16,631 nt of DNA from a virus (Duplodnaviria > Heunggongvirae > Uroviricota > Caudoviricetes). A program made the position numbers. Below are positions 3,001 to 9,000 of the stretch, piece after piece. Location of the stretch: IMG/VR virus record IMGVR_UViG_2778261064_000024. One strand, 5' to 3'. Every line of letters begins with the position of its first letter. The stretch's first letter is position 1.

Positions 3001-6000
3001 TTTCTTTCGTCCAGGGATTAAGGCCGTACTGGTTGGCGACGATCAACAATGCGATAAATTGCGCATCGCTGGCATCACCTTTAAATGCCGTCTGGCGAAG
3101 AGTGGTGATTAGTTCCTGTGGGTCGACAGAATCCATGCCGACACGTTCAGCCAGCTTCCCTGCCAGCGTTGCGAGTGCTGTACTCATCCGTTTTATACCT
3201 CTGAATCAATATTAATTTGGTGACGGGCGATGGTTTCAGCCATGTAGCGGATGTGTTCTGCCATGCGTTCCTGAAAATCGACATCGTCATCAAATGCACG
3301 GGAAATAGCTTTTTTGCTGGCCCCGTGACGTTGCAGATTATCGATGCATAGCGATTCAAACAGGTGTTGGGGCAGACCTTTTTCCAGGTCGTCTGCCAGC
3401 TCAGCTTCAGTTTCTTCACGGGCAATTTGCTGGTAGTGTCGTGCCCATGACTGCTCTTCAATGCGATCGGGGATAAGCCAGGCATTCATGATTTATCACC
3501 TTCGAAATTTTCAAGCCTGTTGGCAATCATGATGGCGATATCAGGGATTGCTGGCGCTGTGGCTATACATGCGGGGTTGGCGCACAAACCATAGACGGCG
3601 GCAATCACGAGCTGTCTTTTCCAGTCGAGAGTTACTGGCTCAGAATTGGCGTCATCGCCGGACGTATCACTGCCTGGCTCGTTCTGAACAACGGTTTCGC
3701 CCTCCTGAGCGGCATCAACAGAGTTTTCCTGAATGATCTTCTCCTCAGTTTGTGCTGAGTCTTCTCCATCAGCGGCGTCATTTTCTCCAAAAGTTTCAGC
3801 GTAAGTTTCATCTCCCATTACTGGACCACAGTCAGGGCAATGGCCGCCACCGTTCTGACTGCATGTGGTGCAAACCTTTTCCACTTCCTGTTGCATTACT
3901 GGCCCTGGCTGTTGCTCTTCTGGCCCGTTTTGTTGCGTATCCGGGCTGTTTTGTCCCGCTTCTGGGGCAATTTGTTCCACTTTGGGCTGATTCTGGTCCT
4001 CAGTGTCGCGAGTCTGGATCCCCTTCACCCACTTCGGATCAGCAGGGTTACTGATGCCTTCAACGAATTCTCCACGCGAGGCAGCCAGTAATTTGTCGGC
4101 ATCGACTGGATTTTTTGGGGGGATGTTTTCCCTGGCTTTATTGAGTTCCTCCATCAGTTCCTGGTATTTCGTTTCTACAGATGAGACATTTTCCAGTGAT
4201 TGCGTGTCCTCATTATGTTTAACTGGAATTTCTTCCACTGATTCAGGCGCTGCCTGTTCATTAGCCATTGTGTCCGATGTTTGTTGCTTTTCTTCATCGC
4301 CATGTTTTCCTTCTGCTGTTCCGCGCTGCGGCATCGGTGCTGATGAGCGACCGCAGGCAATTTCCACGATTTCCGGATCCGGGTTAGCGTGATCGGTTTC
4401 GGTCAACACTTTGTTGAGATATTCAGTCACGCGTGCCGGGATGGCCTCAATGCCGATTGGTGCTTCTTTCACGGAAGCCACCACAATGGCGCGGGAATAA
4501 TCCAGCCCACCGGGCATGGCGATAAATTTGTCGCGAAAAACAGAAAAGGGCGGCTTATTCTCTGACACGATTTCTTCAACGCGTTTTGCGTGTGCTGGGT
4601 GCAGGTTATAAATATCCACATCCATTGAACGGGCCAGAACGCCGGTGGCTACATCTCGTGCGAGTGATGTCTTATCATGTTTGAATCCTTCACCACGATC
4701 GGTAATATTTCCGCCGCCAGCGTTAGCACCGGAAGGCGTACGGGTAATGCCTGAAACATAATTTCCGTTCTGCCATTCTTTTGTCAGCAGGCCCTGATCA
4801 AGGTAGTCAGTTTTCATCCAGGTGGAAATGAACTTGTCGAATTCAGCCGGGCTGATGCGATGATTTGCAGAGTGGGGGAATGCTTTCCCTACAGATTCAG
4901 CCAGGCGACTAAGGTGATAGTTCGTCAGTTTATCCAGTTCATGATGCGCGGCGCGCACAGCAGTAAGCAGGCTCTGAAGGTAACTGTCCTCTGTGTCCAT
5001 CTCCATACGGATCACGTTATTGCGTTGTTCTGGTGTGGCATGATGCCGGTATTTTCCATCTTCATCTTTGCTGAATAAGAAGAGGTGAAGGAAGCGATGA
5101 GTAAGGCTCAGAGTGGCGACGGGAATTTCACACTCAGAACAGTCATCGTCGCTGTCCGGGGATTCGTTTTTCTCCACATCATCCGGAATAGTTCCGTCCG
5201 GGTCATCGTTGTCATCGCCAGCAGTTGTGGCATCTTCACCGTTGATGTTGTCATTGAAGGGTATAGCCATCATGGTGATGCCATCTTCCCCGCCTTTTTC
5301 ATAGCGGTTGCAGAATTCAGTATCAAACACGCCTTCCGGTGGAAGGTCATTCACGACGGGGAAATTTACGCGAACGGGTTTTTTGAAATCATCCTCGTCG
5401 TAGCCTGCATCGTCCATGGCTGCAATGCAGCGGGAAACTGCGACAGAAAGTTTTCTGGCATCAGCCCAGAAAAAACCGCCTTTGATGCCAAGGCGTTTTC
5501 TGACTTTATCGTTTTTTGCTTCGCAGTGTAGTGCAAAAGTCTGTTTATCAGCGCTCATTGTATTTAAACCTCTGGCTGGATTAGAATTAGAGGCCCTTTG
5601 TCTGATTTCTCCGAATACGGTGACGCAGGGAGAAATCCGGTAGCCTGCGCTGCCGGATTTTTATTTCAGTGGAAGGTTGCCTGGTTTGCTGTTTTGTGAG
5701 TTGTTTTTCCCTTTTCGTGCTGGCATTCAGAGCAGTCGCACTCAGAATTTTCTCTTGCAAATTCAAGAGCCTGCGCCAGTGTATGGATTTGTTGTGCTCC
5801 AATGTTGCTTCTGACGACTTCACATGCAGCATGAATATATGGGCTTGGTGTTTTGCCATTTAACCCACATGAAACAAAACGACTGTCCTTATATTCGTTA
5901 TTTCCAACTTCTGTAAGCACTGAAAAAGAAAATACAAAGTCGATTTTGTATTCTTTGCATATTTTACTGATGCGTTCTGCAATTTCTTTGAGTTCATTTA

Positions 6001-9000
6001 TTGCATCAGGACTGGTTTCGGAAAATATTTCATTTTGCGCAAGTTCTTTCATTTTGATTTTTCCGTGATTGATAATTAATGCGGTTTTATTTCGGCTTGT
6101 CTGTTACAGATATGGAAGGTGTATTTTATTACTCGTCACAACGACGCTGCTTTTACGGGTAAGCCATCGCGCCCGATGAAAACTTTAATCATGCAGTCGG
6201 TAATGCATGTTTTTGTTGTGAAGTTACGAATATAGAGTTTTCTCTTTTCAATATTGTTTGCTGAAGCGATATATGTCCGACCTTCATGAAGAACATAATC
6301 GCCAGGCGTCACGCACTGACGTGGTATTTCATCAGTTCCGAAGTGATGAGCAATCATAATTATCTCCATTTTCACAAATGAACTTTGTTGATGCGGTGCC
6401 TGGTGCCTCCAGGTGACGTTAACCAGTTAACAACCAACGCCGGGTCAGGGGACGATGACTTTCCGTGACATCCTGTCGGTTTAACTGTTCCGCGTGCGCA
6501 TAGCCGCATTCACCGCATCACAAAATTCACTTTAAAAAGGGCGGACATCAGCAATCGGCAAACCGATGTCCGCCAAGGGCTACACACAGCAATGTTGTTA
6601 TTCACAACCGGAAGCGCACGGTCGAAGAAATCTAACGACAAGCCTTCAATGGGAAAGAGTCTTCGCCGTGCACTTTCGTGTTGTACCCTGGCTTTCAGGG
6701 TAATGTCTGTTCAGTAAACTGAGAGTGCCGGAACTTACCCGTGTCCGGCGCACGATCTCCACCTCACCCGTGGAGAACTCCTCAACTACAAACCCCGTAA
6801 GGAGAGTGAATTTATGACACAAGAAGAAAAAGTGATGTTTCTGATGCGGCTGGCTGTCGATACCTACAACACACAATTCAGGGAGAAAGATATACCTCAA
6901 AAGGCAGTTCCTGCCGCGGTAGATAAGGGCGGTGCTATTGCCGTATTTTACGATGCATTTGAATCATTTTTTGATGAAAAACTCGACGCTGTTAGCGACT
7001 TCGGAACATCGAGTAATAAATAACGTTCATTACGGTTCTTAAACAACAATCAGTGGGCTTGATGTTGTTCTTTTCAAGCTCACTTGCCATCACTTCCATT
7101 ATTCTTGCACTTACACGAATTATTTGGTGGCTGTAAGCGACGCAACTATCGCTGATATTGCTGTTTATTTCTATTACTTCATTTTCACCATTAGCATCAA
7201 CTTCGGATGCGCTGTTTTCATTATCCTGTTTCAGTGCTTTTTCTGCCATCTGGATGCGTGTCAGCGTTGCGGAATTTGGGCTAAGTCGATAAACCTGTTT
7301 GGCATCTTCCAGAAGCAGGGCGATAATGTGCTTCAGTTCTGTTTCGTTCATAGTTAACTCCGGTAGTTGCAATTTATTAATATCAGGCGGTCAGCTCTTT
7401 AAGCTTCTGAACTGCTTTATTCATTTCATCCATACAGTCGATGAATTCGTCCAGTTTAAGCTGCATTTTTCCGGCGGCCTGAAGAATTTCAAGTTTTAAG
7501 GGCGCAAGTTTTTTGTTGAATTCATCATCTTCCTGGCGTTTTTTCTCCGCAATTTCGGCGGCTTTCAGCAATTCTTCAGCCTGTTTTCTGAGTATTTCTG
7601 GTGAAGGTGAAACTGCTTTGAGGTTATTCACTTCAGGTTCCTGTTGTTGCAGAATTAATTTGTTGCATTCTCTGCGTGAGCGTTTCATTGCAGATTCGCA
7701 CTTCTTGCAATAAATGGCTCTCCCGTCACGCTTGCTGGCATCTGAATAAAAATCATTGACTGATTTTGTCTGCCCGCATCTGGTACATAATTTTGATTGA
7801 AGGTCCTTAATGATTGTGACGTTTCCTTCCCGCTTGGGATATCCATATTTTTTGTGGCGTAAAAAGGTTACTCCGTTACCAGAACCTTCTTTTCTGACCT
7901 TAAATACAATGATGCTTTCCCGTTTATCGATAAAATCGATGAGCTGGTTTCTCTCCTTTCCTGACAGTTCGGCAAATGTCTTAACTTTTTTAGTAACCTC
8001 AGTAAGGCGAACGCCGTCAGGCATTTTTTCAACGAAGTTTTTAATCTCTGCAAGCGGACGCCATAATTTTTGCGGCAAAACTGAAGGCGTGGTCATCAAT
8101 CACCTCGCCGTCAGTTGTTTGGATTTCCGGTAGCCTGCCGCGTAAATGGCTACGTTTGGAAGACATACACCAGTTTCTGGTTGCTTATGTCCAAACTCAT
8201 TCGCGTACACAATGGCCGCTCGCTCCAGATTGCGTCTGTATTCTTTCTGTTGCCAGATCACGTCCTGTGCCATGAACTTAATTGGCTTAGCGTCTTCTAT
8301 GCGCTCAGGCGTTTCGTGAGTACCTTTAGCCTGAATCTGCGCTCTGCTTAGAGTAGGGCGGTGTAATACTTCTGAACTTATTGCTTCTTCGCGGGCCAGC
8401 ACGCCGTTAGCTAATGCCTTTGCCTTTAAACGCTCACGACGACGAGAACGTGAATTGCCTTTGAACTGAGTTCTGCGTGTCATATAGACCTCCTGATGAA
8501 CTTTGGTGGTGTGGTAGGTGGGAGACCCATTTCGACCTGTTTCGGCCTACTTCAATTCGGCAATAGTCCCACAGGCCTCGCCGCTTTACGTGCGACATAT
8601 TCCCGTCCATGAACCCTTCACCACACCCCAAAGTTCACTTTGGTTATTGCGCTTTGTCAGCGCCGTAGATTCATATTCGAATCGTTGTATATTCACCGCC
8701 CTGGTGAGTAATACGTCCTGCTGATGACGATAATAATGAACCAATAGTTCGATATTATCAAGAACTATTGGTACGAATTTTGGTGATTTATTAACTCTAC
8801 GAAGTATGATTCTGATATATAAGGAAATTTATTTTTGAAAATGTGGCTGATGAAGGTTATGCGGCAGGGATCAGAACTGCATGGTTTAGCGAGTTACATC
8901 AATAAATACAATGAGTTATGTTTTTTTAGGTGGGGGATCGTGAGGCAAAGAAAACCCGGCGCTGAGGCCGGGCTAGATTTTAAAGTATTTATCTTTTAGA

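Follow-up and report, generated by a model that had tools for sequence, protein, structure and literature searches.

What two small genes contribute when they sit between an intrinsic terminator and the recombination genes of a lambdoid phage is the question raised by positions 5666-6375 of the IMG/VR virus record IMGVR_UViG_2778261064_000024, a 16,631-nt stretch of DNA that we refer to throughout as the window. An earlier, sequence-only reading of this locus had described the two open reading frames (ORFs) as an AT-rich insertion behind a tL-like terminator, at the place where lambda carries ral/sieB-type genes, and had proposed them as candidates for anti-restriction or exclusion functions. 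The explanation that best accounts for the locus as a whole, to which we give about an even chance of being correct, is different. The segment would consist of two unrelated units within the N-antiterminated pL operon of a lambdoid Stx-type (pro)phage: a widespread prophage module, made up of a DicF-family hairpin/terminator, a leader and the division-inhibitor gene kilR, and an exchangeable cassette of ~480 bp encoding a protein of 128 amino acids (aa), here called p128, which would be an accessory protein, probably acting in counter-defence.

The window covers the part of a lambdoid Stx-type (pro)phage that reaches from the integrase to the replication genes. In the kilobase tested, it is 98.9% identical to Escherichia phage PhiR5_2; Shigella phages 75/02 Stx and POCJ13 and phage phiSTEC1589-Stx1c are 92-94% identical. 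Both small ORFs are present on the minus strand as originally described, at 6052..5666 (128 aa) and 6357..6136 (73 aa), and both are real genes of the leftward early operon. The segment end at 6375 corresponds to a GTG-extended start of the kil ORF (6375..6136, 79 aa); translation probably begins at the ATG at 6357, where a GGAG stands 6 nt ahead, and yields 73 aa, a length that fits all homologues. Two further ORFs were considered and set aside as genes: a 45-aa ORF at 6372..6509, probably a non-gene, falls inside a conserved RNA leader, and a 90-aa alternative-frame ORF at 5587..5859 appears only as a frame-shift artefact, as in the tail of protein P0025.

The segment is indeed low in G+C, at 0.39 over 5666-6375; the window as a whole has 0.47, and recE-N, gam, bet and exo have 0.49-0.51. 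Third-position G+C is 0.31 in p128 and 0.39 in kil, against 0.48-0.56 in the neighbours. The dip is moderate, however, since 9.4% of 710-nt windows within this stretch are as low or lower. The genes upstream (6992-8099) are likewise at 0.41-0.42, so there is no sharp AT-rich island, and the immunity region falls to 0.33. Nor can an insertion of two genes be demonstrated. The phage collection holds no record with the same flanks and without the two genes, and kil together with its leader and terminator is an old and very widespread module, leaving the 128-aa gene as the only swappable part.

By its sequence, the 73-aa ORF is KilR. It matches NCBIfam NF008465 ('FtsZ inhibitor protein') over residues 1-72 of 73 with 154.9 bits against a cutoff of 92, and phrog_294 (Kil) with E = 8e-36; PF27398 KilR is recorded on its homologues; and 66 of its 73 residues (90%) are identical to KilR of the Rac prophage of K-12. 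The gene evolves under strong constraint (ratio of nonsynonymous to synonymous divergence, dN/dS, 0.06-0.12), and its context is that of kilR, past a DicF-type terminator and leader and ahead of the ydaE/racC/recE region. Low levels of KilR disrupt Z-rings, and high levels disrupt MreB organisation (PMC12482147). Given the 90% identity to K-12 KilR, the product encoded here would be expected to have the same division-inhibitor activity, as a host-killing inhibitor of FtsZ and MreB. Because the gene is kilR, with homologues whose established function is unrelated, an anti-restriction or exclusion role is ruled out for this half of the segment.

KilR of K-12 Rac agrees along its whole length, comes after a DicF-type terminator and leader as well, and likewise sits ahead of the recE region. 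The two loci differ in that the present one belongs to an inducible, N-dependent Stx-type phage whereas Rac is cryptic, and in that kilR is followed here by p128 and in Rac by ydaE-racC. The arrangement also recalls lambda, where the gene order from pL is cIII-kil-gam and where a division-inhibiting kil is likewise expressed by N-dependent read-through just upstream of the recombination genes; in the window, unlike in lambda, a RecE-N-type gene and p128 separate kil from gam. Lambda Kil is a much smaller protein and is not known to share sequence similarity with KilR. The two proteins are reported to have different phenotypic effects (PMC12482147).

The sequence-only reading was right that an intrinsic terminator precedes both genes. 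The segment begins ~180 nt downstream of a strong one, a 13-bp stem at 6574..6540 (minus) with CUUUUU behind it (centroid energy -23.9 kcal/mol, fold z-score -3.3); none of 200 shuffled sequences (0/200) folds as well. A simple terminator scan missed this hairpin on account of its 9-nt loop. The terminator that had been labelled 'tL-like' is the hairpin of a DicF-family small-RNA (sRNA) element at 6588..6539 (minus), and hairpin and U-tract are positionally homologous to dicF upstream of a division inhibitor. The Rfam DicF model (RF00039) scores 29.5 bits there (E = 5e-4), which does not reach its gathering score of 48, but the element aligns in register with the canonical DicF upstream of dicB in phage mEp460 and also with the region upstream of kilR in K-12 Rac. 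Relative to phiSTEC1589, a compensatory change from C:G to U:A keeps the stem.

Beyond the element, 195 nt match Rfam STnc100 (29.1 bits, E = 5e-4; gathering score 47), and the conserved, STnc100-like untranslated leader occupies 6538..6358 (minus) up to the kilR start. Of 5426 complete E. coli genomes, 4616 carry leader-like stretches with ~85% identity ahead of kilR or dicB, and the median number of copies is 2. This frequency, together with the in-register alignments to mEp460 and K-12 Rac, indicates that the module is not peculiar to this phage; an sRNA-type terminator, a leader and a division inhibitor form an old and ubiquitous prophage module (~85% of complete E. coli genomes). With dicF-dicB of the Qin prophage (RF00039), the locus shares the in-register terminator, the leader and the division inhibitor that comes next. 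It differs in its sub-threshold Rfam score and in the 5' single-stranded part of the candidate sRNA.

In the region concerned (6588..6600 and 6539..6641, minus), this 5' part, AACAUUGCUGUGUGUAGCCCUUGG, departs from canonical DicF and closely resembles the stretch of RprA that lies just ahead of the RprA terminator. The Rfam RprA model scores 29.7 bits (E = 0.53; gathering score 70). K-12 Rac, Rac-SA53, phiSTEC1589 and other loci have the same 5' stretch conserved ahead of kilR. The kilR-linked element may therefore represent an unannotated prophage sRNA with an RprA-like seed.

How would the genes behind such a terminator be expressed? The sequence-only reading had allowed for either N-mediated read-through or a promoter of their own. 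Upstream on the minus strand lie a pL-like promoter (8761..8733), a boxB-like hairpin GCGCTGACAAAGCGC (8663..8649), which we take to be P22/H-19B-like, and N (8483..8100). From this promoter on, the early-left genes are all on the minus strand except for one plus-strand ORF of 69 aa, discussed below. A promoter scan found no sigma-70-like site on the minus strand between the terminator and kilR or p128. Since pL, the boxB-like hairpin and N lie upstream and no promoter-like site lies inside, N-dependent read-through from pL is the natural expectation for both genes, and of the two routes it is the one we infer. Upon induction, read-through of the terminator would then allow KilR to block Z-ring formation and MreB organisation.

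Behind kilR, an intergenic spacer with 32.5% G+C (6135..6053, minus) carries a weak but conserved GGA as ribosome-binding site and leads to the ATG of p128 (6052..5666, minus). It might be asked whether the 128-aa ORF is a chance or decaying reading frame in an AT-rich spacer. Its Shine-Dalgarno sequence is weak (GGA only), its family is narrow and its structure predictions are of low confidence, all of which a non-gene would explain. Yet dN/dS is 0.22-0.27 between deep pairs, at synonymous divergence (dS) of ~0.85-0.95 (near 0.9); the frame and a length of 128-130 aa are kept at 59% identity; 37 columns are invariant in an alignment of 16 E. coli sequences; the GGA is retained 8-10 nt ahead of the ATG while the rest of the spacer diverges; and a homologous family occupies the same locus in Salmonella. 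A non-gene is thus very improbable. From the selection on its sequence, the conserved length, the invariant columns and the conserved GGA, p128 is judged a genuine coding gene.

The protein belongs to PHROG 2016, matching phrog_2016 with E = 3.8e-77 over positions 1-128 of 128. It is soluble and acidic (isoelectric point 5.5), with no hydrophobic segment (maximal Kyte-Doolittle average over 19 residues 0.76). Homologues form 26 clusters at 59-96% identity, found only in E. coli/Shigella prophages; the gene also occurs in six phage records and, intact, in 81 of 5426 complete E. coli genomes (~1.5%), including O104:H4, and on no plasmid. Searches against Pfam, NCBIfam and PADLOC gave no match above cutoff, and the PDB sequence set yielded nothing, whether the query was the single sequence or either of two profiles. 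The closest approach was Pfam DUF1281_C (PF18406), the ferredoxin-like domain of Api92-like proteins, at 16.7 bits (E = 0.007) against a gathering score of 22.8, with similar sub-threshold scores in 8 of 16 members. Neither this score nor the fold search supports membership in DUF1281_C, and the hit is kept as a lead. An exhaustive search of 1.84 billion representatives with hidden Markov models recovered the family itself and one spurious, repetitive hydrophobic protein (P0027), and a word-indexed search with a merged E. coli and Salmonella profile added no new lineage. In the literature there is no functional study of p128 or of its relative LygB.

LygB-like proteins are the sole distant relatives of p128 found in these profile comparisons. 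In a survey of the slot in 77 IMG/VR loci upstream of recE-type genes, Salmonella prophage proteins of 110-113 aa matched the p128 profile. They belong to a family of 35 clusters of hypothetical proteins of 105-113 aa, one member of which is named LygB by UniRef. Alignment of the two families with hhalign gave 93.3% probability (E = 2.8e-7, 88 columns). Both begin with MK or ME and end in an invariant C-terminal His preceded by Leu or Phe, share invariant L21, R27, C32, S44, I73, A75, A76 and E104, and are encoded upstream of recE-type genes, after KilR/YdaE; they differ in being only 22-33% identical and in a Cys-rich insert confined to E. coli p128. The gene lygB is known solely as part of the Sdr I serovar-marker region of S. 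Enteritidis (PMC4956457).

This comparison bears on the Cys/His-rich motif that had been singled out at the C-terminal end of p128. The motif, SECDCSECQHEKGKTTH, is present at residues 103-119, and within it a CxCxxC insert at residues 105-110 is lineage-specific. In the E. coli branch only C107 and C110 (CxxC) are invariant. C105 is usually present and is lost in two members, and the histidines vary, H112 being replaced by R or D and H119 by N or T. Across the p128 family, the four conserved Cys/His ligands of a zinc finger or ribbon were not found. The motif exists, but it is not a conserved metal site. Because the Salmonella relatives are without the entire Cys-rich segment of 18-20 residues, alignment places it as a lineage-specific insert outside the core of the family. 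The CxxC insert is perhaps an element for metal-bridged dimerisation or stability.

The position of p128 is strikingly constant. In 14 longer loci and ~40 IMG/VR loci, it is always flanked by KilR on one side, YdaE being present or absent, and on the other by a recE-type gene, which encodes either a nuclease-less RecE-N of 682-700 aa accompanied by Gam/Bet/Exo or a full RecE of 1060 aa accompanied by RecT. In some relatives, ydaE (56-58 aa) is inserted in the kil-p128 spacer. DNA similarity to Rac-type phages ends at 6122, 14 nt past the kil stop codon, and restarts near a conserved hairpin and the ribosome-binding region of recE. These two breakpoints define p128 as an exchangeable cassette of ~480 bp. 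In K-12 Rac, with the order kilR-ydaE-racC-recE, racC occupies the p128 slot. Elsewhere among prophages it is occupied by RacC, by a RacC-like protein of 117 aa (E = 5e-5), by a DUF1482 protein or by orphans of 109 aa and 289 aa, or it is empty.

Counted across loci (L078, L079, L081, L085, L087 and L004), the interval between kilR/dicB, with or without ydaE, and recE contains at least five unrelated small-gene families, namely RacC, the 117-aa RacC-like protein, p128/LygB, a 63-aa DUF1482 protein, and the 109-aa and 289-aa orphans. The interval behaves like a hotspot for accessory genes.

The 3' boundary of the cassette is a hairpin 8 nt past the p128 stop codon (5658..5635), with z-scores of -4.0 on the minus and -3.6 on the plus strand. 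Hairpin and A-tract are conserved in eight loci and, in part, in the racC-recE spacer of Rac. A convincing U-tract follows the hairpin (5631..5662) on the plus strand only (GGAUUUUUAUUU), and the minus-strand tail is not conserved. The structure resembles a terminator directed against the pL operon, or else a 3' stabiliser or processing site.

Could p128 and its neighbour nonetheless be restriction-alleviation genes of the ral/lar type or superinfection-exclusion genes of the sieB type? Both are early-left accessory genes, AT-rich and behind a terminator, and p128 has no assigned function, so that anti-restriction is formally possible for it. The 73-aa gene, however, is kilR. In Pfam, PHROGs and NCBIfam, neither ORF has a Ral (PF11058) or Lar-like match, p128 has no SieB match, and p128 is also without a match to ArdA/KlcA. 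SieB is a membrane protein with hydrophobic segments, whereas p128 has none. Moreover, p128 runs in the same direction as pL without a promoter-like site to itself, so expression in a lysogen, which exclusion needs, would not be expected.

The comparison of positions points the same way. What had been taken as lambda's ral/sieB location is actually the kil/racC slot adjoining the recombination genes, and the ral and sieB positions are held by other ORFs: the ral position by a 238-aa ORF and the sieB position by the plus-strand 69-aa ORF. We therefore consider a ral/lar or sieB identity of the two genes improbable. For p128, the narrower proposal finds no similarity to Ral, Lar, SieB or defence proteins to build on, but a counter-defence role in the broad sense is plausible given the RacC slot.

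The 238-aa ORF (8099..7383, minus) lies directly after N, lambda's ral position. Its residues 100-162 form a zinc ribbon matching Lar-like restriction-alleviation and endonuclease VII-type PHROGs (phrog_5558, E = 3e-8), and related loci carry a Ral fragment (PF11058) directly ahead of the homologous gene. The 238-aa ORF would be a better anti-restriction candidate than kilR or p128. It is followed by an ORF of 119-126 aa (7372..6992, minus), whose 3' end is overlapped by the convergent 69-aa ORF (6814..7023, plus). The latter is acidic and conserved (phrog_2605), is called as a gene in many related loci, and contains no transmembrane segment and no known domain. It has the position and orientation of sieB in K-12 Rac, on the other strand and upstream of the kil leader, and for this reason could be expressed in the lysogen.

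We favour a different role for p128, one suggested by the slot. RacC, the only slot occupant with a characterised function, blocks the RcaT toxin of retron-Sen2 and retron-Eco9, and the adjacent RecE triggers those retrons by degrading their multicopy single-stranded DNA (msDNA), so that racC and recE act as blocker and trigger (Bobonis et al., bioRxiv 10.1101/2020.06.22.160242). Like RacC, p128 is a small, soluble, prophage-restricted protein, encoded by an orphan gene that follows kilR, whether or not ydaE intervenes, and immediately precedes a recE-type gene. It also evolves rapidly. p128 is the most diverged protein of the block, with 59-66% identity where Kil, Gam and Bet have 93-96%; its synonymous divergence is ~2.5-fold above that of its neighbours; dN/dS reaches ~0.6 between close alleles; and the alleles are mosaic. 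From slot position, early expression, prophage restriction and fast mosaic evolution we infer that p128 is plausibly another accessory protein of the slot, probably a counter-defence one. Expressed early and acting by binding another protein, it would neutralise an abortive-infection or toxin effector of the host that the recombination functions of the phage provoke, as RacC does against RcaT. In its most specific form, that p128 and its LygB-like relatives are a new counter-defence family, unrelated to RacC, which blocks an effector, such as a retron toxin, by which the recombination functions of the phage are sensed, the proposal is tentative and we would put it at somewhat better than one chance in four.

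Several observations weigh against this role. The evidence for it is position and evolutionary pattern, and the expression and translation of p128 are themselves predictions. The higher dS of p128 reflects old allelic divergence and recombination, for which an arms race is not required. The parallel with RacC is incomplete: RacC has 91 aa and p128 has 128 aa, and the recE-type gene of this window is without the nuclease domain that degrades msDNA. No BLASTP alignment between p128 and RacC appeared at E <= 100, and homology of p128 to RacC or YdaE was rejected as no sequence similarity was detected. In p128, Pfam, PHROGs, NCBIfam and PADLOC recognise no anti-defence or defence domain, nor any other known one. 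AlphaFold2, run twice on shallow alignments, returned low-confidence models with disagreeing topologies, one all-helical (predicted local distance difference test score, pLDDT, 48) and one alpha-beta-beta-alpha-alpha (pLDDT 55). Foldseek against the PDB found no match at E <= 0.001, its top hits (ferredoxin-like and double-stranded-RNA-binding domains) having a probability < 0.25. Finally, the tight linkage to recE fits a recombination-related role equally well.

That last point leads to the idea that p128 is an accessory of its neighbours, either modulating the RecE-type protein or recombination, or tempering or timing KilR toxicity. In every p128 locus examined, the gene lies ~100 nt upstream of the recE-type gene and downstream of kilR. 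The neighbour in the window, a 690-aa RecE-N-type protein (5558..3486, minus) that had been noted as a large acidic protein, matches PF06630 with E = 1.3e-12. It also covers positions 1-598 of the 877 in the NF007259 profile, scoring 739 bits where the cutoff is 1269, and this 'exodeoxyribonuclease VIII' is the N-terminal two-thirds of RecE without the nuclease domain. Encoded alongside lambda-type Gam/Bet/Exo, it has a dN/dS of 0.23-0.29, and such purifying selection implies that a nuclease-less RecE-N has some function of its own. A DCSEC string occurs in both p128 and RecE-N, which could be coincidence; RecE-N carries other CxxC strings as well. However, other recE-type genes have unrelated genes in the slot or leave it empty, and kilR also occurs without p128, so neither needs p128. 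In addition, p128 diverges much faster than Kil, Gam and Bet, which would be unusual for a core cofactor. We regard a neighbour-accessory function as unlikely, if worth keeping in mind.

A host-takeover or toxic effector, in effect a second 'kil-like' function, could also be imagined for a small, soluble, prophage-confined protein that adjoins kil in an early operon, and many orphan genes of this lambdoid region are toxic when expressed. Against this, p128 has no similarity to any toxin family in Pfam, PHROGs, NCBIfam or PADLOC, and its gene is intact in the 81 complete genomes, although repression in the lysogen would permit that. The chance that p128 is such an effector appears slim.

Outside the segment and its immediate neighbours, past the RecE-N-type gene, the order is gam, bet, exo and int. 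Between a cI-like repressor (11819..11112) and N, the minus strand at 9140..11051 carries several AT-rich ORFs, 220, 102, 153 and 113 aa in length, in which G+C falls as low as 0.32; the equivalent interval of a related locus (L007) encodes a DUF3024 protein, a protein of 153 aa and a Ser/Thr kinase. In the replication-gene region, a tandem duplication with a period of 778 bp spans 12734..14347 (12734-13569 versus 13512-14347, 98.8% identity) and gives rise to a 261-aa ORF (12814..13599) followed by a 362-aa O-like ORF (13592..14680). The repeat may be genuine, with the 5' part of the O gene copied, or may have arisen during assembly.

The kilR half of the segment is thus already understood, while p128 represents a catalogued but uncharacterised orphan family in a slot with an anti-defence precedent, among whose carriers are O104:H4 strains and Stx phages. 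Should p128 not act in counter-defence, the gain is a better annotation of a common early region of Stx phages. Should it block a host immune effector, the interval between kilR/dicB and recE would be a place to mine for counter-defence genes; the kilR-recE interval would become a predictable anti-defence hotspot of enterobacterial lambdoid and Rac-like prophages, and the other orphans of the slot would become candidates in turn.

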